DNA from: Escherichia coli
GTDB lineage: Bacteria > Pseudomonadota > Gammaproteobacteria > Enterobacterales > Enterobacteriaceae
Reading direction: 5' to 3' (one strand)
DNA: 64,000 nucleotides
Assembly (NCBI RefSeq): GCF_011045215.1
Contig: NZ_CP049201.1
The notes under the pieces were generated by a model. The model did not search any database. It was not told the DNA's origin and saw only the letters and a program-made list of their open reading frames with translations. The translations under genes and the position numbers were made by a program. Positions 20,687 through 54,349 of the stretch are shown in pieces (position 1 is the stretch's first letter; each line of letters begins with the position of its first letter).

Positions 20687-21682
20687 GTGACCGTGAGAGC
20701 ACTACTGACCCCTGAAATTGCCCCGCGTATGGGGATCGTATTGTTCAGACCAGGTTCAGAGCTGATGCCCCTGTTTATGCAGGGGCGTGTACTGCTGGAG
20801 CCTGAGCCGGAACGTTATTCATCTTTCGCCAGTGGTGCCGTTCCCGCGGCATCACAACCGCTGGCGGATGATCCTGCTGTTCGGGCCGTGTTCCGCAATG
20901 AGGCAGTGATCCGTCGTGCTGGTGGCGTGGAATGTCTTGAAAGCTGGTTACTTCGTGAAAAAGGCTGCCAGTGGCCTCATTCCGACTGGCACAGCGAGAA
21001 CATGACCACAATGCGACACGCTCCGGGCGCAATCCGTCTGTGCTGGCACTGTGATAACCAGCTGCGCGATCAGTTCACGGAACGGCTGGAATCAATGGCA
21101 ACGGATAACTGTGCCCGCTGGGTGTTGTCTGTTGTGCGTCGGGATCTCGGTTTTGATGATAGTCACGTTGTGACAATGCCGGAACTGTGCTGGTGGCTGA
21201 TTCGTAATGACCTGGCGGATGCCTTACCGGAAAGTGCAGCCCGTAAGGCACTGAGATTACCAAAGCCTGTTGTGCCGTCTGTCACCCGGGAAAGTGACCT
21301 TGTGCCTTCGGTTCCTGCCACCAGCATCATCCAGGATAAGGCAAAAAAGGTGCTGGCGCTGAAAGTGGATCCGGAGTCGCCGGAGTCTTTTATGTTACGC
21401 CCAAAACGTCGCCGCTGGGTTAATGAGAAGTACACGCGCTGGGTTAAGACACAGCCGTGTGCATGTTGTGGAAAGCCCGCTGATGATCCCCACCACCTGA
21501 TAGGCCACGGTCAGGGGGGAATGGGTACAAAAGCGCATGACCTCTTTGTGTTGCCTTTGTGCAGAAAGCATCACGACGAGCTGCATGCGGATACCGTGGC
21601 ATTTGAAGAGAAGTATGGCTCCCAGCTGGAGCTGATATTTCGTTTTATCGATCGTGCGCTGGCAATTGGCGTGCTGGCCTGA
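20687..21682 (+). CDS. Phage protein with C-terminal Cys/His cluster (NinG/DUF-like)
   Basis: CCGKPADDPHHLIGHG...CRKHHDELH motif; family uncertain. Confidence 0.4.
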   Translation: MTVRALLTPEIAPRMGIVLFRPGSELMPLFMQGRVLLEPEPERYSSFASGAVPAASQPLADDPAVRAVFRNEAVIRRAGGVECLESWLLREKGCQWPHSDWHSENMTTMRHAPGAIRLCWHCDNQLRDQFTERLESMATDNCARWVLSVVRRDLGFDDSHVVTMPELCWWLIRNDLADALPESAARKALRLPKPVVPSVTRESDLVPSVPATSIIQDKAKKVLALKVDPESPESFMLRPKRRRWVNEKYTRWVKTQPCACCGKPADDPHHLIGHGQGGMGTKAHDLFVLPLCRKHHDELHADTVAFEEKYGSQLELIFRFIDRALAIGVLA

Positions 21683-21696
21683 TTTGGTGGAGAAAG

Positions 21697-22065
21697 TTGA
21701 TGCGTGATATTCAGATGGTTCTTGAGCGTTGGGGAGCATGGGCGGCGAGTGATAGTTCAGGCGTTGACTATTCACCTATAGCTGCTGGGTTTAAGGGACT
21801 TCTTCCCTATACCAGCAAGAAACGCTTGGCTTGTTCGGATAGTGATGCATTAATTATTGAAGGTTGTCTTGCTCGTCTAAAGCAAAAAAGACCTTATGAG
21901 CATTCGCTTCTTGTGGCACATTATTTATACAGAATATCCAAGCGTAAGATTGCAAAGGCGCGTGGAAAGGATGAGAAATTGATACGTATAGAAATACAGC
22001 TAGCCGAAGGATTTATTGATGGCTGCCTTTCCATGCTAGATCTAACATTAGATTTGGACGTTTAA
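21697..22065 (+). CDS. Putative late-gene antiterminator (Q-like)
   Basis: 122 aa ORF immediately upstream of the lysis region. Confidence 0.45.
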   Translation: MMRDIQMVLERWGAWAASDSSGVDYSPIAAGFKGLLPYTSKKRLACSDSDALIIEGCLARLKQKRPYEHSLLVAHYLYRISKRKIAKARGKDEKLIRIEIQLAEGFIDGCLSMLDLTLDLDV

Positions 22066-22067
22066 TA

Positions 22068-22090
22068 ATACGCCCCATGCAGGGGCGTAT
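22068..22090. terminator. Hairpin between Q-like gene and convergent KAP NTPase gene
   Basis: Perfect 9-bp stem ATACGCCCC-atgca-GGGGCGTAT. Confidence 0.55.
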
Positions 22091-22093
22091 TAT

Positions 22094-23425
22094 TTACTGG
22101 ATGAATGACATTTGATTAATATATTTTATCAATAACTCTCTGGGTGTAGTACTCCAAAAATTTAGGTGTTCATAATCAGTATAAACATTGGTGAATTTTT
22201 TAAGTTCTTCATCACTTTTAGGGGCAAATCGCTCATTAAGAGTAATACTGTCTTTAATTATTCCGAAGAATACAATAGATATTTCAGGAATTTGCGATCT
22301 TCTCTCATAAGAATAAGGTATTTCTTTTATGTTAAGCAGATCTGCTAAATGAGATATAGATTCTGCGGTAATTTCTTGTTTTAGTTTTTCCTTGTCACCA
22401 AAGCAATGTATGAAGACAGCTACGACAAAGATCTTATTTATTAAAGGATCACTGCTTTTGTACTCATCGTCGTTTAATAGTTGAAAAATGTTAAGATTGC
22501 GTGAAAAAGTTTGTGTTTCACGTAAGGATAAGTTGGTTCGTTGAATTAAATCACGGATAAATCTACCAGATAAACTATTAATTTCATTTAATGATTTTGT
22601 CTTGTCTACAAGGTAATTCCAATATATAACAGATGTTTTACATACGACGTGACCATTTATTAAACATGTGTCTGGAAGCGTGATGGTATATTTTATAAAC
22701 TTGTCAAGATACTTTTGTGAGTTAATACTATAACCATAAATATGATTTATCGATGCTTTTAATTGTTCTGTGTTTGTAACTAAAATAAAAAAGACATTAT
22801 TGATGTCAAAAATGTGTTTTATTGTTTCAATGACATTTGTTGAAAAACTCGGCTTACATCGGTCTAATTCATCAATTATAATTACTATCTTTTGACTTTC
22901 TGAAATGCTTTCGATGCAAGATTTAAGTGAATTTATGTTTTTCTCTGATTCCATATGGTCTTCAAGCAAATTTTCAATAGTCCCATCTATTGCTGCATTG
23001 CTTGCTTTCTTCATCGCATCTTGGAATTCTTCGGAAACTTCACTAGCCTCCTGTCGTAAAAACCAACCTGCACCAGCTTTTAGTACCGTTTTTAAACCAA
23101 AGCGAATTGCAGGAAGAGATCTCTTAATGAAGTGTTGTTTTTCTTCCTCAGGTAAAATGCTGGCAATTGCAGAGGTTATGAGAAGTAATGGAGATTCTGC
23201 ATGATCCCCTTTAAAGGCATCAATATAAACAACTTTAGATTCAGTTTCTTGCTCAATAATGAGATTTTTCAGTTTGATACTAAATTCTGTTTTCCCTGTT
23301 CCCCATGCGCCGTCTATTACCAGTGGTGAAATGTCTGCCTCTGGTTTTAGCAACTTGATGATATTTTCAGCGATGTTTCTGCGTTGGAACTCGTCACGTT
23401 CAGTGAAAGATAGTGTATCTAACAT
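22094..23425 (-). CDS. KAP-family P-loop NTPase (candidate phage-exclusion/abortive-infection protein)
   Basis: Walker A GAWGTGKT, Walker B IIIDELDRC; AT-rich; opposite strand in Q-to-lysis moron slot. Confidence 0.75.
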   Translation of the reverse strand: MLDTLSFTERDEFQRRNIAENIIKLLKPEADISPLVIDGAWGTGKTEFSIKLKNLIIEQETESKVVYIDAFKGDHAESPLLLITSAIASILPEEEKQHFIKRSLPAIRFGLKTVLKAGAGWFLRQEASEVSEEFQDAMKKASNAAIDGTIENLLEDHMESEKNINSLKSCIESISESQKIVIIIDELDRCKPSFSTNVIETIKHIFDINNVFFILVTNTEQLKASINHIYGYSINSQKYLDKFIKYTITLPDTCLINGHVVCKTSVIYWNYLVDKTKSLNEINSLSGRFIRDLIQRTNLSLRETQTFSRNLNIFQLLNDDEYKSSDPLINKIFVVAVFIHCFGDKEKLKQEITAESISHLADLLNIKEIPYSYERRSQIPEISIVFFGIIKDSITLNERFAPKSDEELKKFTNVYTDYEHLNFWSTTPRELLIKYINQMSFIQ

Positions 23426-23548
23426 AATATAAACCTATTAACTCCTACAGTAAAAAACGAATAATACGACTTTGGGATTAAAAATCATTAACGCGGTCCG
23501 CAAAAATTCTTGTAATCTGTTAAGAGTGGTTACTTCGCCACACAGCTT

Positions 23549-23580
23549 AAACCCGCCGTCGAGCGGGTTTTGTCGTTTTT
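23549..23580 (+). terminator. Candidate tR-prime-like terminator upstream of lysis genes
   Basis: Stem AAACCCGC-cgtcga-GCGGGTTT followed by TGTCGTTTTT. Confidence 0.4.
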
Positions 23581-23721
23581 GTTGCTGGGGATTCGTTGGG
23601 CCTGGCCTATCCAGCAGTTATCCATTGGTTCGGCTCTTTGACGTTTCCGCTTCTGATTTGCGGTACATGATGTTCCCTCAATTTGCACCTGCTGTATCAG
23701 CGAGGTGAGAGATAACTACAA

Positions 23722-24048
23722 ATGCCTCATAACCCAAATACTTGGCTGGACTTGGTCCAGAGCTGGTGGCGTGGAGACACACCGCTGGGCGCAGTGATTA
23801 TGTCGATTGTTATGGCTGGTTTGCGTATCGCCTACTTTGGTGGTGGTGGCGGCTGGAAGCGAAAAACGCTCGAGATTTTGCTCTGTGGCGCTCTGACTCT
23901 GACTTTTGCATCCGCGCTTGAGTATGTCGGATGGCCTAAATCACTTTCTGTTGCCATTGGTGGTGGCGTTGGGTTGATCGGTGTCGATGCTATTCGTGGG
24001 GCTGCAATGAGAGTAATCGGTAATAAGTTTGGTGGCTCTAAGGAGTAA
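23722..24048 (+). CDS. Putative holin
   Basis: Small hydrophobic protein directly upstream of endolysin. Confidence 0.6.
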   Translation: MPHNPNTWLDLVQSWWRGDTPLGAVIMSIVMAGLRIAYFGGGGGWKRKTLEILLCGALTLTFASALEYVGWPKSLSVAIGGGVGLIGVDAIRGAAMRVIGNKFGGSKE

Positions 24049-24051
24049 TTT

Positions 24052-24528
24052 ATGCAGGTACTAAATTCCCAGCGTAAAGCTTTCCTCGATATGGTGGCAT
24101 GGTCAGAAGGAACGGATAACGGGCGACAACCGACACGTAACCACGGTTATGATGTTATTGTTGGCGGCGAACTGTTCACTGATTACTCCGATCACCCTCG
24201 CAAACTTGTCACGCTAAACCCCAAACTCAAATCAACAGCCGCCGGGCGTTATCAGCTTCTTTCACGCTGGTGGGATGCTTACCGTAAACAGCTTGGTTTG
24301 AAAGACTTCTCCCCCAAAAGCCAGGACGCAGTGGCATTGCAGCAGATTAAAGAGCGTGGCGCTTTACCGATGATTGATCGCGGTGATATCCGTCAGGCTA
24401 TCGATCGTTGCAGCAATATCTGGGCGTCATTACCCGGCGCTGGTTACGGTCAGTATGAACATAAAATCGGTGACCTGATTGCCCGATTCAAAGAGGCTGG
24501 CGGGGTGGTAAATGAAGTTGAGCTATAA
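24052..24528 (+). CDS. Endolysin, lambda R-like lytic transglycosylase
   Basis: Near-identical to recalled lambda R (NQRKAFLDM.AWSEGTDNGRQ.TRNHGYDVIVGGELFTDYSDHPRKLV). Confidence 0.9.
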   Translation: MQVLNSQRKAFLDMVAWSEGTDNGRQPTRNHGYDVIVGGELFTDYSDHPRKLVTLNPKLKSTAAGRYQLLSRWWDAYRKQLGLKDFSPKSQDAVALQQIKERGALPMIDRGDIRQAIDRCSNIWASLPGAGYGQYEHKIGDLIARFKEAGGVVNEVEL

Positions 24529-24973
24529 GCTGGTTATCGTTGCTTTCTTCGTTACTGTCATTGGTTCTTTCATCTGTTCAGTGAATCGTTACCACAATAA
24601 AGCCATTGAATACAAAATGCAGCGTGATGAGAATGCTATGGCATTAGATTCGGCTATGGCGACCATCTTTGATATGCAGAAGCGTCAACGTGACGTAGCA
24701 GAACTTGACGCCAGATACACAAAGGAGCTTGCTGATGCTAATGCGACTATCGAAAGTCTCCGTGCTGATGTTTCTTCTGGGCGTAAGCGCCTGCAAGTCG
24801 CCGCCACCTGTGCAAAATCAACGACCAGAGCCAGCGGCATGGGCGATGGAGAAAGCCCAGGACTTACAGCAGATGCTGAATTCAATTATTACCGTCTCCG
24901 AAGTGGAATCGACAGGATAACCGCACAGGTTAATTACCTACAGGAATACATCAGAACTCAATGCATGAATTAA
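24512..24973 (+). CDS. Spanin inner-membrane subunit Rz
   Basis: N-terminal TM segment, lambda Rz-like (QRDVAALDAKYTKELADA-type motif). Confidence 0.8.
   Translation: MKLSYKLVIVAFFVTVIGSFICSVNRYHNKAIEYKMQRDENAMALDSAMATIFDMQKRQRDVAELDARYTKELADANATIESLRADVSSGRKRLQVAATCAKSTTRASGMGDGESPGLTADAEFNYYRLRSGIDRITAQVNYLQEYIRTQCMN
24735..24920 (+). CDS. Spanin outer-membrane lipoprotein Rz1 (embedded in Rz, +1 frame)
   Basis: Lipobox-like LLGVSAC followed by proline-rich region. Confidence 0.55.
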   Translation: MLMRLSKVSVLMFLLGVSACKSPPPVQNQRPEPAAWAMEKAQDLQQMLNSIITVSEVESTG

Positions 24974-25582
24974 AAGAGGCAGATTGATCGTGTTTTCGAA
25001 GTGTTATACCACGCCCGTTCTGTTAATTTGGCAAAATCTGTTCTGATGCAATGAGTATCGAAAGATTTATTGGACTGGTTGCTTTGGTTATCACTGTTAT
25101 CGCTGGAGTTGTTGGCCTAGGGCGTATCCGTGGCACTAGTAAAAGAAGAGGTTAAAACTGCTCTGTTATACACTGAAGTTAACGCAGCGGCTAAGCACTC
25201 AGCAGCAGGACACCGTGTAGAGGCAACGGAAGAGGCCAGAAATATACAGCAGACTATTAACCATATTCCTGGTGACTCTGTTGAGCGCGGTATGCATAAG
25301 AAATACAAACGTACAATTTGAAGTGGTATATTTTTCTTGTTAGTAGATGAATATAATATACCACACAGAATACGATATAATTATTGCTCATGCTTACCTA
25401 AATATGAAAAACAATAAAGTTATAAGTAGACAAGTGTTTTGTTACTTTTAATAATTGATGTGATGTATATATTAAGATTGAAAAATTTAATCATTCTTTC
25501 CACATATAAATTAAGTGGTTCCCTTAGCTTGTCATTTTTGATGATAAGTGAGAGAATATGAACATTATATGATGGAGATAAT

Positions 25583-25894
25583 ATGTCAAACATAAAAATC
25601 AAACAAGCTATTGAAAAGATTGCGGAGTTCAGAGCAGCATCTGCTGCGATGGCTGATGCTCACATGGTTCTTATTACAGAGCTATTGAACTCAATTGAGG
25701 ATATCCGCAAAAACTCTGGTGATAATCTCTCTGAGTTTGAAAAAGGACAGGTTGCTCTCTACATAAAAATTAGCCCAGTTGTGAAAAATGGAATTTCGAG
25801 TATTGAAAAATATAATGAGTCTTTAAGTTCAGACTATGTTGAGGCTATGAACTCCTTATCTAAAATTGCGGGAGGGAATTCAAATGTCGATTGA
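25583..25894 (+). CDS. Hypothetical protein A of AT-rich cassette
   Basis: 103 aa ORF with GGAG RBS. Confidence 0.45.
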   Translation: MSNIKIKQAIEKIAEFRAASAAMADAHMVLITELLNSIEDIRKNSGDNLSEFEKGQVALYIKISPVVKNGISSIEKYNESLSSDYVEAMNSLSKIAGGNSNVD

Positions 25895-26270
25895 AGATGT
25901 TGGAAGCATCCTTGATAGATTAAAAGTAGCCAGGATCGAAAATAAAAAAATTGAAGAGTCAGCTGGAAAAGCAGAGGAAAATGCTGTTAACTCTAAGCAT
26001 ACTGATGGTAAAACACGAAGCGCCTTAACTATTACGTTTCTCTGGTTCTTTTTTTGCCTTCTTATTTTTAGCTGTCTTTTTGTTCTTTGGTATAATAATT
26101 CTGTTGTGAATTGGGCTTTAGAGTTAAAGAGCAAAGGTGTTGATGATTACGTTCAATATTTAAAGCCACTCGAGCTGGAAAAGGTATTGTCAATAATGAT
26201 TACTGCCCTTGGTACTTCATTAGGATTTATAATTGGGTATTATTTTAAGGATAAAGAAAATCATTCTTAA
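25884..26270 (+). CDS. Hypothetical membrane protein B of AT-rich cassette
   Basis: Hydrophobic segment ITFLWFFFCLLIFSCLFVLWY; start overlaps stop of A. Confidence 0.45.
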   Translation: MSIEDVGSILDRLKVARIENKKIEESAGKAEENAVNSKHTDGKTRSALTITFLWFFFCLLIFSCLFVLWYNNSVVNWALELKSKGVDDYVQYLKPLELEKVLSIMITALGTSLGFIIGYYFKDKENHS

Positions 26271-26315
26271 TATAGAGTTATCTCTAAAGATAACGAATTT
26301 TAATAGGAGGGTAGA

Positions 26316-26618
26316 ATGTCTGAACTGAATTATGAAGCAATAGGTCGCTGCAAAATCCTTAATGAAAAGATCAAAGATCTTCATGCTGAACGAATGAAAG
26401 CTATTGGTGATTTACGTACTGCTGTCTATGCCCTTCATCAGAAAGGGAATGTAAACCTCATCCCACCAGAAATTGTTGAATTCAACCCCCAATCGCTTAC
26501 ATCCCTTGTAGAGAAGGTTGGTCACTATGATGGTGAGCTGATGCGAGCTGTACATGAGTACAACAACTGGTGTGTAGAAGCAGGCGAGAAACCCGTAAAA
26601 CTTATAAAGCTAGACTGA
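26316..26618 (+). CDS. Hypothetical protein C of AT-rich cassette
   Basis: 100 aa ORF with AGGAGG RBS. Confidence 0.45.
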   Translation: MSELNYEAIGRCKILNEKIKDLHAERMKAIGDLRTAVYALHQKGNVNLIPPEIVEFNPQSLTSLVEKVGHYDGELMRAVHEYNNWCVEAGEKPVKLIKLD

Positions 26619-26643
26619 AACAACAAATTTATGCAAATCATTA

Positions 26644-26667
26644 GCCTCGCACATGCGGGGCTTTTTT
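26644..26667 (+). terminator. Rho-independent terminator after AT-rich cassette
   Basis: GCCTCGCA-ca-TGCGGGGC stem followed by TTTTTTAT. Confidence 0.5.
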
Positions 26668-26703
26668 ATGCGCACCACACATGCACATCAAAGAGAGTCT
26701 TCA

Positions 26704-27054
26704 ATGCCGCCACGAATCCCAAAAGCCTGCCGTGTTCGCGGTTGCCGCCATACCACGACTGACCCGTCAGGCTACTGCGAAAGCCACAAAAGCGAAGGCT
26801 GGAAGCAATACAAACCTAGACAATCCCGTCATCAGCGCGGCTACGGTTCGAAGTGGGACAGTATCCGCGCGCGTGTCCTGAAGCGTGACAAAGGCCTGTG
26901 TCAGTTATGTCTGCGTGCCGGTGTGGTGCGTGAGGCGAAAGCCGTTGACCACATCATCCCTAAAGCGCATGGCGGCACTGATGCCGACTGTAATCTGCAG
27001 AGTCTGTGCTGGCCGTGTCATAAGGCGAAGACGGCCCGTGAACGGCTGAAGTGA
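26704..27054 (+). CDS. HNH endonuclease (packaging-associated)
   Basis: HNH motif HIIPKAHGG...CNLQSLCWPCHKAK; start placed after terminator. Confidence 0.75.
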   Translation: MPPRIPKACRVRGCRHTTTDPSGYCESHKSEGWKQYKPRQSRHQRGYGSKWDSIRARVLKRDKGLCQLCLRAGVVREAKAVDHIIPKAHGGTDADCNLQSLCWPCHKAKTARERLK

Positions 27055-45927: not shown

Positions 45928-46341
45928 TCATAGACACATTGATGTTATTCCGGACTGAGGTACCTCCGTAAAAGCCCCACTCACACTTTGAACATCGACA
46001 ATTGCATTAATTTCGCTGTTTACGCGCAACTGACCAAAACCGCCAGTAATGTTTCGAATAGCATCTCCTTGCGATGAAAGCAGAGTTCGCCCACTATCCA
46101 CACCACGTTCATCATCCCATCCACGAATAAATTCACCGCGTAAATCAGGCAATTTATTTGTCGGGTAAGCCTTTGCCAGTTCCGGGTATTCTTCAGCAGA
46201 AAAAGCCGCACCATTGCATTTCAGCCAGCCTGTTGGCGGAGTGGCTGAAGGCCACGGAACAGGCACCCCAACCCCACATGCTGAGCCTTCTCCCAAACCA
46301 ACGTTTATGAAAATGCAGAAATAACGAGCAAATGGCATCAT
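45928..46341 (-). CDS. Alternative tail fibre C-terminal segment
   Basis: Gly-rich ORF on minus strand facing the fibre gene. Confidence 0.35.
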   Translation of the reverse strand: MMPFARYFCIFINVGLGEGSACGVGVPVPWPSATPPTGWLKCNGAAFSAEEYPELAKAYPTNKLPDLRGEFIRGWDDERGVDSGRTLLSSQGDAIRNITGGFGQLRVNSEINAIVDVQSVSGAFTEVPQSGITSMCL

Positions 46342-46367
46342 TCCTGCTTTTGTCAGGGAGATCTACC

Positions 46368-47850
<1,483 letters not shown>

Positions 47851-47993: not shown

Positions 47994-48570
47994 CTTTATC
48001 AATGACTTATCTCCCGACTTCCCGTCTTGCTTTTCCTAAACAGAACAATCGTAGAATATTCTTGAAGGGTTAGATCGTCACTGTTTTCTGTTCGATACTG
48101 TGACATTCAGCACTTGATTCGCTATGGATCTGACAGGAAGGTTTTGAGCGAAAATCTGCAGTTATTCAGTCGTTTTCTTATCGGTCACCATTATTCTTTT
48201 AGACATTGATCCTACAAAGCTGCCGCAAAGTTGGTGGTGGGAACTGAAGTTGCGTAGAGAAGGGGTCAATACCCGGAGGCAAACATGGGCTGGCAAAAGT
48301 GTAGCGGTATTAGGCGCAGCTATTTAGCCTAGTTATGTTTTATGAAAACTTGATATCATATAAGTGTCTTACTTATTGGCTGTAAATAAGTTTTTCTAAG
48401 GAATTGTTTCTTGAGTATCATTTGTAACTGTAACGGAATTTATAATCCTTTGCTTTATTGTTACGGTATTTTTATCACACCCTATTTTTAGTGGTTTTTA
48501 TACTGAAGTTTGGCAAAGTGAACTTTATATACATATACTTCATCCTGTTTCAGTTAAATTGGGTGGATGA

Positions 48571-49315
48571 TATGGCAACTACATGTTCAGTTATATTGAT
48601 TTTGGAGTCCTTTGATGTTTATTTCGGAAAAGAGAGTGTGTTTCTGGAGAGAGGTTCATCTGTACTTGTCGACTCTAGCTCTAGAGATTTTTTCCTGACA
48701 TATCCTGAAAGAGTGATAGTGGCGGATTTTGGCGCTGAGTTTATTAGTCGCTATTTGAAAGCTAATAACTTAAGGGATATTTCTGATTGTAGGGAATATC
48801 CATCTTATTTAAAAATAAACTTTGCTGACTTCAGTTTAATTAAAGGATTAATTAGTTGGGCTAATCACTGTGCTGAATACATAGAAATTTTTGATGAGTC
48901 TATTGCTTTTACATGTCTCTCTGCATTTTCTTCTGAAAAACAATTTGGAGTATTTCTGTTTGGATGTTTGAAAAGCACAGGGGCTAAAGTTAAAACGATT
49001 ATTCATACGGATTTATCTGCACCATGGCGTCTTAAGGATATATCATCAAGATTATATCTCAGCGAAAGTTTACTAAAGAGGAAATTGAAAGAAGAGGGGG
49101 TATCATTCAGTAAGATCATACTTGATGAGAGGATGCAAATGGCTGAATATTTACTCAGCACTCGTTGTTATCCTATTAGTAAAGTAGCTAAGGTCTGTGG
49201 TTATGCCAGTGTCTCATACTTTACTTATGTATTTAGACGTTATTTTGGTGTTTCTCCAAGTCAATACTCTCAGAGGAGTTCAGAAAGTAAAATTCTTACT
49301 CACCAGGGAATCTGA
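48571..49315 (+). CDS. AraC/XylS-family transcriptional regulator (Rns/AggR/AppY-like)
   Basis: C-terminal dual-HTH pattern WRLKDISSRLYLSESLLKRKLK...ILDERM...YFGVSP; AT-rich; start uncertain. Confidence 0.65.
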
Positions 49316-50118: not shown

Positions 50119-50280
50119 CAACGTCTTTTCCCGTCTATTAAAATCCAAAAAACCCGCATATACTCTAGCTTTGAGCGCCCCCGATAGTGTTTTAACGTCT
50201 ATCAATATCTCCTAAAATCCACGTCTTTTGGGGGTATATTCGGGGGTATATGCTGTGTGGGCTACTGGAGATACCCCCAA

Positions 50281-51471
50281 ATGAAACTAAATGCCCGTCA
50301 GGTCGATACGGCCAAACCGAAAGAAAAACCCTATAAACTGGCCGATGGTGGTGGGCTTTATCTGCTTGTTAATCCCAATGGTTCCCGGTACTGGCGTTTA
50401 AAGTACCGGGTAGCCGGAAAAGAAAAGCTGTTGGCGCTGGGGGTATATCCCGATGTAACCCTGGCTGATGCCAGGGCGAAACGAGATGAGGCCAAAAGGG
50501 GTATGGCTGGGGGGATCGACCCGAACGAAGCGAAGCGGGAAGAAAAATTGAACCGCGAAGCGCAAATCAAAAACACCTTCGAAGAAATCGCCAGAGAGTG
50601 GCATACAGAACGGCAGAAGAAATGGTCTGAGGGGTACGCCTCGGACATTCTGGAAGCATTCAGTAAAGACATATTCCCTTGGATTGGAAAACGCCCCATC
50701 ACGGAAATAAAGCCCCTTGATTTGCTGAATACGCTTAAACGCATCGAGAATAGGGGAGCGACTGAAAAGGCCCGTAAGGTTCGCCAGTGGTGCGGGGAGG
50801 TCTGGAAGTATGCGATCGTTACCGCCCGCGCAGAATATAACCCCGCCCCTGATCTATCTGTGGCTATGGAAGGACACGAAGGGGAGCACTTCCCCCATCT
50901 GGAAGCCGAAGAGTTACCCGAATTTTTCCAGACGCTGGCGACGGCAAAAAGTAACGTTCAGGTTATTTTGGGGCTGCGTCTGCTTATTCTTGTGGGGTTA
51001 CGTCCGGTTGAATTACGCGCGGCCCCGTGGTCAGAGATTGATTTTGATAATGCCTTGTGGGAGATCCCCAAAGAGCGAATGAAGAAAAGACGTCCGCACG
51101 TTGTCCCGCTTTCTCGCCAGGCTATGGTTATTCTCGGGCAATTAAAAGAGTTGTCGGGCCGCAATCCTTTCATTTTTCCGGGCCGGAACGACCCGCGAAA
51201 GCCAATGAGTGAAGGAGCAATTAATCAGCTAATAAAGCGACTCGGGTATAAGGGCAAAGCTTGCGGGCATGGTTTCCGACATACCATGAGCACAATTTTG
51301 TATGAGAAAGGGTATAACACCGAATGGATCGAAACCCAGCTTGCACATGTTGATAAAAATACCATCCGTGGCACATATAATCATGCCCGCTATCTGGATG
51401 GACGCCGGGAAATGCTTCAATGGTATGCCGACTATATGGAATCGCTGGCGAGTGGCAGGGTAAAAGATTAG
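50281..51471 (+). CDS. P4-type integrase (tyrosine recombinase)
   Basis: N-terminal MKLNARQVDTAKPKEKPYKLADGGGLYL typical of P4-family integrases; catalytic HGFRHT... Confidence 0.85.
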   Translation: MKLNARQVDTAKPKEKPYKLADGGGLYLLVNPNGSRYWRLKYRVAGKEKLLALGVYPDVTLADARAKRDEAKRGMAGGIDPNEAKREEKLNREAQIKNTFEEIAREWHTERQKKWSEGYASDILEAFSKDIFPWIGKRPITEIKPLDLLNTLKRIENRGATEKARKVRQWCGEVWKYAIVTARAEYNPAPDLSVAMEGHEGEHFPHLEAEELPEFFQTLATAKSNVQVILGLRLLILVGLRPVELRAAPWSEIDFDNALWEIPKERMKKRRPHVVPLSRQAMVILGQLKELSGRNPFIFPGRNDPRKPMSEGAINQLIKRLGYKGKACGHGFRHTMSTILYEKGYNTEWIETQLAHVDKNTIRGTYNHARYLDGRREMLQWYADYMESLASGRVKD

Positions 51472-52020
51472 AGAAGGTCTAAGACGGGAATACCGCTAAA
51501 TTAGATGTTAGGCGTGGACACTCAGCATCCACGCTTAAACTTTTTATTATCATTTTCAATGAATTATGATTTTGGAAATTTTATAAAAAACACCAAGATT
51601 ACTAATCTATTGATTAATATGAAATATTTCTTTTTTTGATTATTAATTGTGCTCTTGATTGTTGTTTTTATGGTGTTAATTTATAAAAATCTTATTTATA
51701 GGAATTAACATTATATAGTTGGCACTTTTTGCTAAAATCTGTTTTTATTGTGTTTTATTTTTATTTCATTTTTGTTGTTGTTTGTTTGATTTTTAGTGTC
51801 TTTATATCTGGCTAATTGATTTCACTCAAACCATAAATCCTTTCAGAGGCTTCTAGAGTCTTCCTGAGGCTTAAATTGACTTAACTAAAAGTCAAGCCCC
51901 ACATCCCACATACATCTTTTTGACATGCACTTATGGCGTGAATAACAATGACTTCATCCAATCTACAGGCATCCTATAAAGTCAATGTCTGTATATAGAA
52001 AGATATTACATAACGTTTGA

Positions 52021-52260
52021 ATGTTAATAGCGGGTGTGAATATGAGAAATGATGCAATGCAGCTTTTAAACCAGGGAAAAAGATTGATCCGCCTGCCTGA
52101 AGTTATGATGCTTACGGGGCGGTGTCGCGCCAGTATTTATAAAGATATCAATGCAAATGTCTTTCCAAAGCCGATTAAAACCGGCCCGCGTTCTGTCGCA
52201 TGGGTTGAGGGTGAGATCAGCGACTGGATCGACAACAAAATCAAAGAGCGCAAAGTGTAA
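52021..52260 (+). CDS. AlpA-family transcriptional regulator
   Basis: RLIRLPEVMMLTGRCRASIYKDI...FPKPIK.GPRSVAWVEGEISDWI; start may be 52057. Confidence 0.7.
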   Translation: MLIAGVNMRNDAMQLLNQGKRLIRLPEVMMLTGRCRASIYKDINANVFPKPIKTGPRSVAWVEGEISDWIDNKIKERKV

Positions 52261-52459
52261 ATCTGATTTTATTCAGAGATGAATATGATTTATTTGAATG
52301 CTAAGGATTTTGTGTATTCTTTTTGTTGTAAATACTCGTAGCATGGGGAGTTGGCAGTATTTATTCAGTATTAGGTTAAGTAGTGATAAAATACCAGGTA
52401 ATGCCGGTTTATGCAGTGTTTAATATATTTGTTGCTGGCGAAAATTTACGGAAAATTAA

Positions 52460-53332
52460 ATGAACATTACTGATATTATCAGCCATCGCGTATATCGTGA
52501 TGCGGATCTTGCTGTCATTAATAACACGGCATTTATTCAGCCTTATGACGGTTGTCACCGTGGGTTGTATGAAATGCGCGTTATTGAACTTTATCGCCTG
52601 AATAAAATGATGCACCTTACCCACGAATATAAATCTATTTCCGGGGAAAGCGTAGGCATTCCGGCGACTAAAGAGGAACTGTTTACACTGGTTAATAAAG
52701 GGCATGAACTTTGCCAGTCTGAACGGGAAAAGCTGGCGGCACTTGAAGCAGAATTGCAGCGTCTGCCAAGCCCGGCTGTAATTCCTGCGCCGCAGACGAT
52801 TAAAGAAGCACAGCAGGCCCGTAAATCACTAGAAGATGAAAGATACAGACTGCATCACGCAGCAATTAAAAATCAAGTCAAAGCACAGCAGGAAGAGTTA
52901 TCCATCAGACAAAACATTCTGGAATTGCTCGCGCCGGTTATTGATGTGTTGTTGGCCGTGGAAGATGTGGAACTGCTCGATCTGCGCCGTTCCCTGCCTA
53001 AGTCATCCCTCGATGCTAAGGCATTCAAAAAGGCGATTTCTGAAATTGAGTGTGCTGACCTTGCCTGGCAGAAAATGGATAAACTGGAGATTGCCCTTAA
53101 CAAGGTGGTGAACAACTGCACATATCGCCCGGAAGGAAGCATTAATCCCCGTTTTGTTAACCCTCTTAATGAAGATAAGCGGGAACGCGCCGAAATATCA
53201 CGCGATTATTACAGCTCTGAAATGGCCTTTATTCATACGGTGATGAGTGCAGATGAATATTTAAATTATATGTTGCCGATCCGTCACCAGCAGCGCGCGC
53301 AACGACTCACATTAGAAAGAAATATCAACTAA
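52460..53332 (+). CDS. Coiled-coil protein (possible scaffold or capsid-size factor)
   Basis: 290 aa with long predicted helical/coiled-coil central region; immediately upstream of capsid-like gene. Confidence 0.4.
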   Translation: MNITDIISHRVYRDADLAVINNTAFIQPYDGCHRGLYEMRVIELYRLNKMMHLTHEYKSISGESVGIPATKEELFTLVNKGHELCQSEREKLAALEAELQRLPSPAVIPAPQTIKEAQQARKSLEDERYRLHHAAIKNQVKAQQEELSIRQNILELLAPVIDVLLAVEDVELLDLRRSLPKSSLDAKAFKKAISEIECADLAWQKMDKLEIALNKVVNNCTYRPEGSINPRFVNPLNEDKRERAEISRDYYSSEMAFIHTVMSADEYLNYMLPIRHQQRAQRLTLERNIN

Positions 53333-53341
53333 GGAAGAATT

Positions 53342-54349
53342 ATGTCTTATGTAACACCAGATTATTTAACGCAGTATCACGAAAACCTGATTAAGTCTTT
53401 TAATATTAAATATAAAAACGAAGATACGGGGTATTTCACCATATCACAGCCGGAAAAAGCATCTCCGGATGCATGGGGATGTTCCACGCTTGATGTTAAA
53501 GGCTCGTCCTGGCTGATTGATAATATTTCATTACTGGACATTATCGGTGCGGATGGCACGACGATCACCATCGGTGATGGTTCCCTTTATACAGGCCGTG
53601 CAAAGGAAGGTCGCTTTCATAAGAAACTAAAAACCAACGGAACACCTTTTTTATTATCAGAAACGGATTCCTGCGCCTCATTGACTTATGAAGAAATGGC
53701 GGTAATGGCAAACGCGAAAAATTTCAGTAATGAAATGATCATTTTTTTCAAGAAGGCCGTGGTGCGGGATATGCTCCGTATTGGATTTAACGGCAAGATG
53801 ATTGCCGAAAATACCAACCCGGAACAATATAAAAACGGCGAAGATATCAATATTGGCTGGCACTCGCTGGCAAAAACATTCAATAACGGTTCACAAATTA
53901 TTTCTGATGCTTTCGCACTGGGGAAAGGCGGTGATTTTGCCGATGTTCACGATCTGGCTGATTGCCTCATCACGTCAAAAATCCCCGAAGGTCAGCGCGA
54001 AGATCCGGGCCTTGTGGTGATGGTTGGCGCGCAACTTGCCGCCCGCGAACGACTGAAACTGTTCAACATGGCCGATCAACCACTGACGCTGACGGCGGGG
54101 GATATGCTGACAAGCAGTGTCGCCGGTCGCTTTGCTTTTATCCCGCCGTTTATGCCGGGTAAGCGCCTGGCTGTTACGACGCTGAAAAATTTGCAGATCC
54201 TGACGCTGAAACACAGCCAACGCTACCGCGCGGAGGATATCCCGCAACGAGGTGTTTATGAGCATGGCTATTTACGTGAGGAAGGTTACGCGCTGGGGGA
54301 TGGCTATCTTTACGCGGCCAGCGATGAGAACGCCGTAACGCTGGTTTAA
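53342..54349 (+). CDS. P2 gpN-family major capsid-like protein
   Basis: Motifs GFNG, GKGGDFA and EDPGLVVMVGAQLAA resemble recalled P2 gpN; needs search confirmation. Confidence 0.5.
   Translation: MSYVTPDYLTQYHENLIKSFNIKYKNEDTGYFTISQPEKASPDAWGCSTLDVKGSSWLIDNISLLDIIGADGTTITIGDGSLYTGRAKEGRFHKKLKTNGTPFLLSETDSCASLTYEEMAVMANAKNFSNEMIIFFKKAVVRDMLRIGFNGKMIAENTNPEQYKNGEDINIGWHSLAKTFNNGSQIISDAFALGKGGDFADVHDLADCLITSKIPEGQREDPGLVVMVGAQLAARERLKLFNMADQPLTLTAGDMLTSSVAGRFAFIPPFMPGKRLAVTTLKNLQILTLKHSQRYRAEDIPQRGVYEHGYLREEGYALGDGYLYAASDENAVTLV

Follow-up and report, generated by a model that had tools for sequence, protein, structure and literature searches.

What role might be played by a gene that lies between the late antiterminator and the lysis genes of an Escherichia coli prophage and is read in the direction opposite to both? 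The question is raised by positions 22094-23425 of a 64-kb stretch of DNA (the window, meaning the whole stretch analysed), where an open reading frame on the minus strand, starting with an ATG, encodes a protein of 443 amino acids. The window carries an SfV/e14-like mosaic prophage with a lambda-type early region, an HK97-type head and a contractile tail; in a near-identical strain the prophage is integrated adjoining tRNA-Thr. The initial annotation had taken the product for a KAP-family P-loop NTPase and a candidate for phage exclusion, and the family assignment is borne out by profile searches. Pfam KAP_NTPase (PF07693) matches residues 15-317 at E 8.9e-70 over practically its full length (model positions 1-292 of 293), and both nucleotide-binding motifs are intact: Walker A (GxxGxGKT) as GAWGTGKT, residues 39-46, encoded at 23288-23311 of the minus strand, and Walker B (hhhhDExD) as IIIDELDRC, residues 182-190, encoded at 22856-22882 of the same strand. 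In an alignment of 31 homologues, with identity down to 38%, residues G39, W41, G42, T43, G44, K45 and D185-C190 are unchanged.

A still closer assignment is given by the PADLOC model PDC-S20 (PDLC04956), a single-gene 'phage defence candidate' family, which matches residues 3-442 at E 9.4e-177 (model positions 4-449 of 450). The protein has the same size as PDC-S20, stands likewise as a lone gene and shows no structural difference from this family, so that the gene is a member of a group already catalogued, as a computational candidate family only. The PDC families of PADLOC are candidates by guilt-by-association. PHROG 8614, for which no function is annotated, also matches over the full length (E 1.8e-188), and in RefSeq the identical or near-identical genes are named 'KAP family NTPase', for example WP_000887617 in ETEC H10407. 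Literature searches for PDC-S20 and for WP_000887617 returned no mention of either and no experiment on PDC-S20, the DefensePredictor paper and its supplements hold no tested KAP protein of this family, and a sequence-profile search of the PDB gave no match. PADLOC matches to QatA and Mad8 are partial only. On these profile comparisons, the protein belongs to the KAP superfamily and to PDC-S20 and is the orthologue of no validated system.

The surroundings of the gene mark it as an insertion. GC content falls to 0.29-0.40 over 21800-23600, against 0.51-0.57 in the flanks, and the bin 22001-23000, at 0.307, is the lowest-GC kilobase of the window, which confirms by measurement an AT-richness that had previously been judged by eye; the cassette as a whole has a GC content of 0.33, against 0.53 for the phage backbone. 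Homology to phages 1720a-02 and cdtI ends at about 22025-22041 and picks up again at 23480. Together with the spacing of the flanking elements in related phages, these breaks delimit a low-GC cassette at 22066-23479, composed of a hairpin, the KAP gene and 54 bp of cassette-specific upstream sequence. On its left lies the Q-like antiterminator gene (21697-22065, plus strand; PHROG 79, E 3e-44), convergent with the KAP gene and preceded by a gene for a DUF968/HNH protein (20687-21682). The antiterminator belongs to the Q21/Q933W family, PF06530 (10.1101/651190); this domain is found in the Q proteins of its relatives, and the match of the window's own Q to Q21 in the PDB is weak (E 0.054). On the right, the lysis cassette (23722-24973, plus strand) comprises holin (23722-24048; PHROG 126), endolysin (24052-24528; PHROG 90) and Rz (24512-24973; PHROG 13), and the PHROG matches thus uphold the opposite-strand position between Q and the lysis genes that had been proposed. 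A search of Rfam over 21500-26800 gave just a sub-threshold match to STnc100. The antisense OB-fold gene of strain VTB97420v is not present in the window.

The two hairpins that had been thought to bracket the insert differ in status. That on the Q side, first noted at 22068-22090, is real and stronger than claimed: it is a palindrome with a perfect 13-bp stem (22064-22076/22082-22094) that overlaps the convergent stop codons of Q and the KAP gene, and it folds with -20.7 and -21.4 kcal/mol on the two strands (z -5.5 and -6.4; none of 200 shuffles as good). It does not follow Q in phages in which the slot is empty, and it looks like a bidirectional terminator that is part of the inserted cassette. 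The second hairpin, at 23549-23580, is equally real but is no boundary of the insert, being conserved in phages that do not carry it.

That the junction holds variable cargo is evident from 80 IMG/VR loci with Q relatives of 75-99% identity, in which the distance from the end of Q to a conserved block upstream of the holin gene was measured. This distance is 38 bp, that is, an empty slot, in five loci, and 1414-1417 bp, corresponding to the present KAP cassette (1414 bp in the window), in 11; one further locus, at 1404 bp, carries a 46%-identical KAP gene in the same orientation. The other distances (841, 917-929, 1009, 1081, 1174, 1227, 1421, 1494-1502, 1531, 1614-1670 and 2255 bp) reflect further occupants, so that the slot is either empty or filled by some 14 alternative cassettes. 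All cargos are of low GC content (0.32-0.42) and, with the exception of two cargo types, antisense to Q. They include a TIR-TM protein (E 1e-57), PDC-S42 (E 1e-32), an HNH endonuclease similar to CBASS effectors and PDC-M68A (E 7e-27), a PD-(D/E)xK/NucC-like nuclease (E 2e-30), an NYN-like protein and a Clp-like SDH serine protease, as well as several cargos without any defence annotation. The slot of phage cdtI holds a different antisense two-gene cassette (orf53/orf54); neither its products nor the 313-aa protein of locus L016 matched PADLOC, NCBIfam or Pfam. A pair encoding proteins of 313 and 150 aa is a frequent cassette in the slot. Presence or absence at a fixed junction, deviant GC content and a terminator hairpin of its own, the marks of moron or hotspot cargo, are all found in the KAP cassette. 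Such a range of interchangeable cargos at the Q-block junction is the signature of a putative prophage immunity hotspot, and a literature search of incomplete coverage found no description of the junction in these terms.

This interchangeability also bears on the proposal that the gene serves the prophage life cycle or host physiology, for instance by modulating induction, the timing of lysis or processes at the membrane, or through a lysogenic conversion that has nothing to do with phages. The gene does adjoin Q and the lysis genes, and a general part in controlling how membrane-associated complexes are assembled has been proposed for KAP NTPases (Aravind et al., in the account given by PMC12632615). 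However, a fixed junction with interchangeable cargos implies that the KAP gene does not count among the conserved late genes: 12 of the 80 Q-related loci and 49 of 5426 complete E. coli genomes carry it, and elsewhere it is dispensable and replaceable, the slot being empty or occupied by unrelated nuclease or TIR cargo. The gene is, moreover, antisense to the lytic operons, and the same family recurs at the cI-int junction of unrelated 186-like prophages. A role in the life cycle or in host physiology is therefore considered improbable, and a defensive role is favoured, in keeping with the full-length PDC-S20 match and with a slot shared by other cargo of defence type, both of which support the candidate status originally assigned to the gene.

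Whether the cassette leaves the late genes of the phage undisturbed depends on where late transcription begins. On the holin side of every cargo, and 38 bp after Q in the empty phages, lies a block of phage backbone (23480-23580, plus strand) that an alignment of 24 distinct variants shows to be conserved throughout, irrespective of the cargo. It consists, in order, of an A-rich stretch, an invariant CGCGGTCCGCA, N10, a TAnTnT hexamer, TGTTAAGAGTGG, an inverted repeat, a terminator hairpin and a T-run. In the hexamer (TAATCT in the window, 23513-23518), A2 and T6 are invariant and T1 is kept in at least 80% of the variants; positions 1, 2 and 6 are the three that matter most in a sigma-70 -10 element. 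The small inverted repeat covaries (GTGG/CCAC to GTGA/TCAC), the terminator hairpin shows a compensatory change from C:G to T:A in empty-slot loci, and the hairpin at 23549-23570 with its T-run to 23580 scores as an intrinsic terminator on the plus strand. In the Stx2 phage 1720a-02, the equivalent of 23480-23571 directly follows Q, and nothing but this block separates Q from the stx region. [quoted passage not shown] From its position, its conservation alongside this Q family and the interval between Q and stx in 1720a-02, which holds only the block, we infer that 23480-23580 is a pR'/Q-utilisation site/tR' module.

This placement of pR' is founded on position and conservation and is not a promoter call. 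The block alignment contains no canonical -35 element at normal spacing; the candidates are TTAACG (23488-23493), with a 19-nt spacer, and ATCATT, with one of 23 nt. A scan with consensus promoters found seven sites, against 7.4 expected from shuffles, and as it performs no better than shuffles it is unusable for placing either pR' or the promoter of the KAP gene. Late transcription most likely starts at about 23520-23527, downstream of the KAP gene in the direction of the phage operons, and runs away from it. As the cassette lies between the Q stop codon and the inferred promoter block, its presence would interrupt neither Q nor late transcription, and late transcripts would probably not cross the KAP gene.

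The initial annotation had taken the reverse view, namely that late transcription would pass antisense over the KAP gene, in line with expression mainly in the lysogen. This presupposes that pR' directly follows Q, so that Q-modified transcripts would silence the gene in the lytic phase. A plus-strand sequence at 22042-22069 that resembles a promoter, which overlaps the Q stop codon and agrees at 9 of 12 positions, would fit this model, and there is precedent for an antisense immune gene that is switched off, in phi80 Tai (PMC11364771). The -10 element of this match, however, lies inside the cassette hairpin and is missing from empty-slot phages, whilst the conserved block with its -10-like TAnTnT and terminator stays on the holin side of every cargo; the 13-bp hairpin at 22064-22094, furthermore, would stop transcription coming in from Q. 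The premise of the model probably does not hold in this phage group, and silencing by late antisense transcription is regarded as unlikely, with pR' on the holin side being preferred. Transcripts that start in the early operon may still, after induction, pass the 13-bp hairpin and run antisense into the gene. The promoter of the KAP gene would have to be sought in the cassette-specific 5' region (23426-23479, minus strand), which has no homology in empty-slot phages and presumably contains a -10 element and the 5' untranslated region. Since just 54 bp of cassette-specific sequence precede the ATG, the promoter would be compact or would reach into the A-rich edge of the block. One minus-strand site from the promoter scan (23454-23426) was rejected as the KAP promoter because it directly adjoins the ATG, so that a transcript from it could not encode the conserved N-terminus.

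The distribution of the family extends well beyond this prophage. In the 49 E. coli genomes the gene is always chromosomal, and the whole Q-KAP-holin arrangement is found in 41 of them. The 50,697 deposited phage records yielded no more than distant homologues, in five records and with identities below 60%. A wider search yielded 2192 homologues at E<=1e-5 across the Enterobacterales, of about 440 aa, and the convergent arrangement with Q recurs in Salmonella (92% identity), Citrobacter (65%) and Cronobacter (45%). Homologues of 44-45% identity in E. coli and Serratia are placed differently, between the CI repressor and integrase genes of 186/P2-like prophages and co-oriented with both, a position which, by analogy with 186, would belong to the lysogenic operon.

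Low prevalence in E. coli and a foreign composition would also be expected of a selfish or neutral hitch-hiker of no benefit to the lysogen, such as a toxic or addiction-like module or a passenger in decay. Against this stands the way in which the sequence has been preserved. The reading frames are intact, without stop codons, and dN/dS is 0.13-0.21 in comparisons with alleles of 93-96% identity and 0.07-0.17 with homologues of 43-65%; the catalytic motifs are invariant across the 31 aligned homologues, and the length is kept throughout the order. These ratios indicate that the open reading frame is under purifying selection and no chance product, and a passenger of no use to its host appears very unlikely; a function that is selected for, most plausibly defence, is preferred.

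Whether the gene acts alone is a separate matter. A conserved neighbour gene was absent across the four lambdoid and two 186-like contexts, and the single-gene reading, which agrees with the original description of a gene without an obvious partner, therefore holds. The alternative is that the KAP NTPase needs a partner encoded elsewhere, by the host, by some other prophage gene or by a different defence system, and that alone it gives little or no protection. Its structural neighbours RdrA (of RADAR) and BrxC (of BREX), which are much larger and share 10-15% identity with it, work only with partner proteins, and the partners concerned, RdrB and BrxB/PglZ respectively, are absent here. The lack of an effector domain in the KAP model points the same way, as does the documented synergy of Tmn with Gabija, Septu and PrrC (10.1101/2022.08.21.504612). 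The constancy of the gene across contexts that share no neighbour nevertheless argues against a partner, PDC-S20 is classed by PADLOC as a single-gene family, and other KAP proteins protect when expressed alone (PMC12632615; 10.64898/2026.02.27.708500). Dependence on a distant partner is accordingly held to be quite unlikely, and the protein is treated below as self-sufficient.

The architecture of the protein was examined in an AlphaFold2 model built on the alignment of 31 sequences (pLDDT 79.9, pTM 0.75). In the model, residues 1-317 form the NTPase domain around the P-loop core, from which a long helical hairpin, at about residues 93-177, is inserted between Walker A and Walker B; residues 112-154 of this insert are modelled at low confidence. 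Residues 318-443 form an all-helical C-terminal domain that diverges fast. Members of the KAP family carry an insertion between Walker A and B which in many cases contains transmembrane helices and in PifA is free of them. Here this insertion is present and conserved and lacks transmembrane helices: the Kyte-Doolittle maximum over 19 residues is 1.35 for the entire protein, which contains no transmembrane segment and is on this account assigned to the PifA-like soluble type. Neither the model nor the sequence contains a recognisable nuclease, protease, TIR or transmembrane effector domain. Conservation is unevenly distributed, with identities of 0.5-0.88 per 10-residue block over residues 1-250, including the poorly modelled insert, as against 0.15-0.46 over residues 251-443, and with dN/dS of 0.07-0.13 in the N-terminal part versus 0.24-0.27 in the C-terminal part. 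A conserved N-terminus joined to a variable C-terminus is the pattern expected of a putative switch coupled to a faster-evolving specificity domain. Positive selection on the C-terminal domain is not evidenced, its dN/dS still being well below 1.

Comparison with characterised systems relates the protein to known defence NTPases without equating it to any of them. PifA of the F plasmid, which excludes T7, is the founding bacterial KAP NTPase. The two proteins share the KAP P-loop domain, the absence of transmembrane helices, carriage by a mobile element and, presumably, the logic of a sensor NTPase, so that the relation to PifA drawn in the initial annotation stands as far as the NTPase domain is concerned. 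It is, however, a distant one: just residues 7-252 align, with model positions 13-255 of 720 (E 1e-17), and some 470 C-terminal positions are missing here, as is any pifC/pifB context; the gene is prophage-borne rather than plasmid-borne, and with homology confined to the N-terminal 250 of about 720 positions it was rejected as a PifA orthologue. PifA is counted among the KAP NTPases with shown anti-phage activity (PMC13001434).

Closer in organisation is Reve, a single-gene KAP system from P4-satellite hotspots that acts strongly against Drexlerviridae (10.64898/2026.02.27.708500). Both are single KAP-domain proteins of E. coli carried as cargo of a mobile-element hotspot, but Reve has 586 aa and comes from another hotspot and host element; similarity to its sequence, taken from Dataset E1 of the preprint, does not reach beyond the Walker motifs (blastp E 0.008 over 27 residues), and orthology was discarded. 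EF_KAP and three metagenomic KAP-effector fusions are likewise single proteins, conferring Walker-B-dependent phage resistance that is not abortive infection (PMC12632615); they possess transmembrane helices at the N-terminus and, at the C-terminus, 'effector' regions of about 300 aa, whereas the present protein has no transmembrane helices and a helical C-terminus of about 125 aa. The protein was also considered as QatA and as Tmn. Local similarity to QatA around the Walker B region amounts to 35.3 bits in NCBIfam against a cut-off of 600, and Q and holin genes stand in place of qatBCD neighbours. Tmn, now placed in the separate YobI family, has transmembrane helices (PMC13001434). The Tmn / YobI NTPases have two such helices inserted in the P-loop domain; the present protein has no transmembrane segment and, at E<=1, no PADLOC tmn match. 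At the level of the locus, the nearest parallels are phi80 Tai and the P2 and P4 hotspots, which also hold variable, low-GC and often antisense immune cargo at fixed junctions (PMC11364771; PMC9122126), phi80 Tai being a precedent for antisense immune genes within the late regions of lambdoid phages (PMC11364771). The junction differs, extending here from the Q stop codon to the late promoter block of Q21-family phages.

Several lines of evidence underlie the reading of the gene as a defence gene, namely the invariant Walker motifs, the PDC-S20 match, purifying selection, foreign composition, the recurrence of the family in Q-convergent and CI-integrase positions, the nature of the other cargo in the slot and the contrast between the N- and C-terminal parts. 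Published work lends further support, in that other single-gene KAP NTPases, among them EF_KAP with three metagenomic KAPs (PMC12632615), Reve (10.64898/2026.02.27.708500) and PifA (PMC13001434), protect against phages in a Walker-B-dependent fashion. The guilt-by-association nature of the PDC families, the cargos of the slot without defence annotation and a promoter scan no better than shuffles weigh against it. In the mechanism proposed, the prophage would have gained the gene as cargo by horizontal transfer, and the most likely benefit would be protection of the lysogen from other phages. Transcribed from a promoter of its own, on the strand opposite to all lytic genes, it would be made in the lysogen. 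The N-terminal NTPase and its conserved helical insert may act as a nucleotide-driven switch and oligomerisation module, and the fast-diverging helical C-terminal domain may recognise a component of the invading phage. The protein carries neither an effector domain nor a transmembrane segment, and a purely hypothetical killing or blocking step would have to be exerted by the NTPase assembly, which may upset the membrane or the energy state in the manner of PifA or may sequester a phage or host factor. Taken as a whole, a lysogen-expressed, single-protein KAP NTPase defence with a PifA-like or sequestration-like execution step appears somewhat better supported than its negation, and we put it forward with modest confidence.

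A broader proposal can be offered tentatively and seems, on the whole, rather doubtful. On this view, temperate phages with a Q of the Q21 family, both SfV/e14-like and Stx-type, would have an immunity hotspot not described before, located between the stop codon of Q and the late promoter block, at which single- and multi-gene antisense cassettes are exchanged. The effector-less KAP protein of about 440 aa would be self-contained, its output coming from the NTPase assembly, for example by way of the insert at residues 93-177, in a mechanism distinct from those of nuclease, TIR and pore effectors, and several co-resident cassettes, such as the 313 + 150-aa pair, could represent entirely new defence systems.

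Validation of the gene would turn PDC-S20, with about 2000 homologues across the Enterobacterales, from a catalogued candidate into a genuine family of defence genes, and would yield an effector-less KAP NTPase, among the smallest, in which to study how KAP-type sensors, PifA included, stop phages. The survey marks the newly delineated Q/pR' junction as a place to seek new prophage immunity genes, and in the Shiga-toxin phage 1720a-02, which has a related Q gene, the same junction lies upstream of stx. On a modest practical side, lysogens such as ETEC H10407 may owe some of their phage resistance to the KAP gene, which bears on phage therapy and typing.

The slot between the stop codon of the antiterminator gene Q and the conserved late-regulatory block (the Q/pR' junction), which holds the KAP-family NTPase gene in the window, is most commonly filled by an antisense two-gene cassette encoding proteins of 313 aa and 147-153 aa, found in about 12 of the 80 IMG/VR loci with Q relatives. 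Examples are the antisense cassettes at L002:2987-4375, comprising orf53/orf54 of phage cdtI, and at L016:1968-3380. Neither protein had a PADLOC or NCBIfam match and the 313-aa protein, the one of the two scanned against Pfam, had no match there. The cassette is a candidate unannotated system occupying the same hotspot as the KAP gene. This junction also hosts TIR-TM, PDC-S42, HNH endonuclease, PD-(D/E)xK/NucC-like nuclease, Clp-like SDH protease and NYN-like cargos (L059:5410-6249, L076:5415-6230, L029:6059-6922, L038:5417-6163, L026:4982-5881, L030:5571-6566 and L006:5379-6254). Within the adjoining late block, 23480-23548 of the window contains an invariant near-palindrome, CGCGGTCCGCA, together with a small inverted repeat (GTGG...CCAC) that covaries and lies on the upstream side of the terminator; the near-palindrome and the repeat are candidate Q-binding and pause elements for this branch of the Q21 family.

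A second AT-rich island (25200-26620, GC 0.31-0.38) is flanked by the lysis gene Rz on one side and HNH/terminase genes on the other. It carries three plus-strand ORFs (25583-25894, 25866-26270 and 26316-26618), with matches to PHROGs 21707, 20796 and 4827, all of function unknown; the second ORF is hydrophobic and has a weak PADLOC match to 2TM_IV (E 0.003). The island lies in the same slot, 'upstream of the packaging module', that is occupied by the Tai immunity genes of phi80 (PMC11364771). At this position ETEC H10407 instead has a different, single ORF of 184 aa. An Rfam match to the sRNA STnc100 at 26580-26673 is sub-threshold (23.8 bits versus a gathering score of 47) and is probably due to chance.

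Further along the window, at 46332-46922, a serine DNA invertase gene adjoins two minus-strand ORFs of 172 and 140 aa, for which an NCBIfam search gave no match. Should these two ORFs be tail-fibre assembly genes, this part of the window could represent an invertible tail-fibre (host-range) segment. Another kilobase of low GC holds an AraC/YdeO-like regulator (48458-49315). On the right-hand side of the prophage, the stretch 50257-54349 contains an integrase of the P4 type (50257-51471) and an ORF resembling a P2-family major capsid gene (53342-54349); it may represent a satellite or another mobile element.

A homologous KAP gene is also located at the cI-int junction of 186/P2-like prophages (L084-L087 and L095-L097), where in some cases a small YdcA-like ORF or an ORF of 166-169 aa precedes it. 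Besides the Q/pR' junction, the cI-int junction is a recurrent site at which members of this KAP family are carried as cargo.
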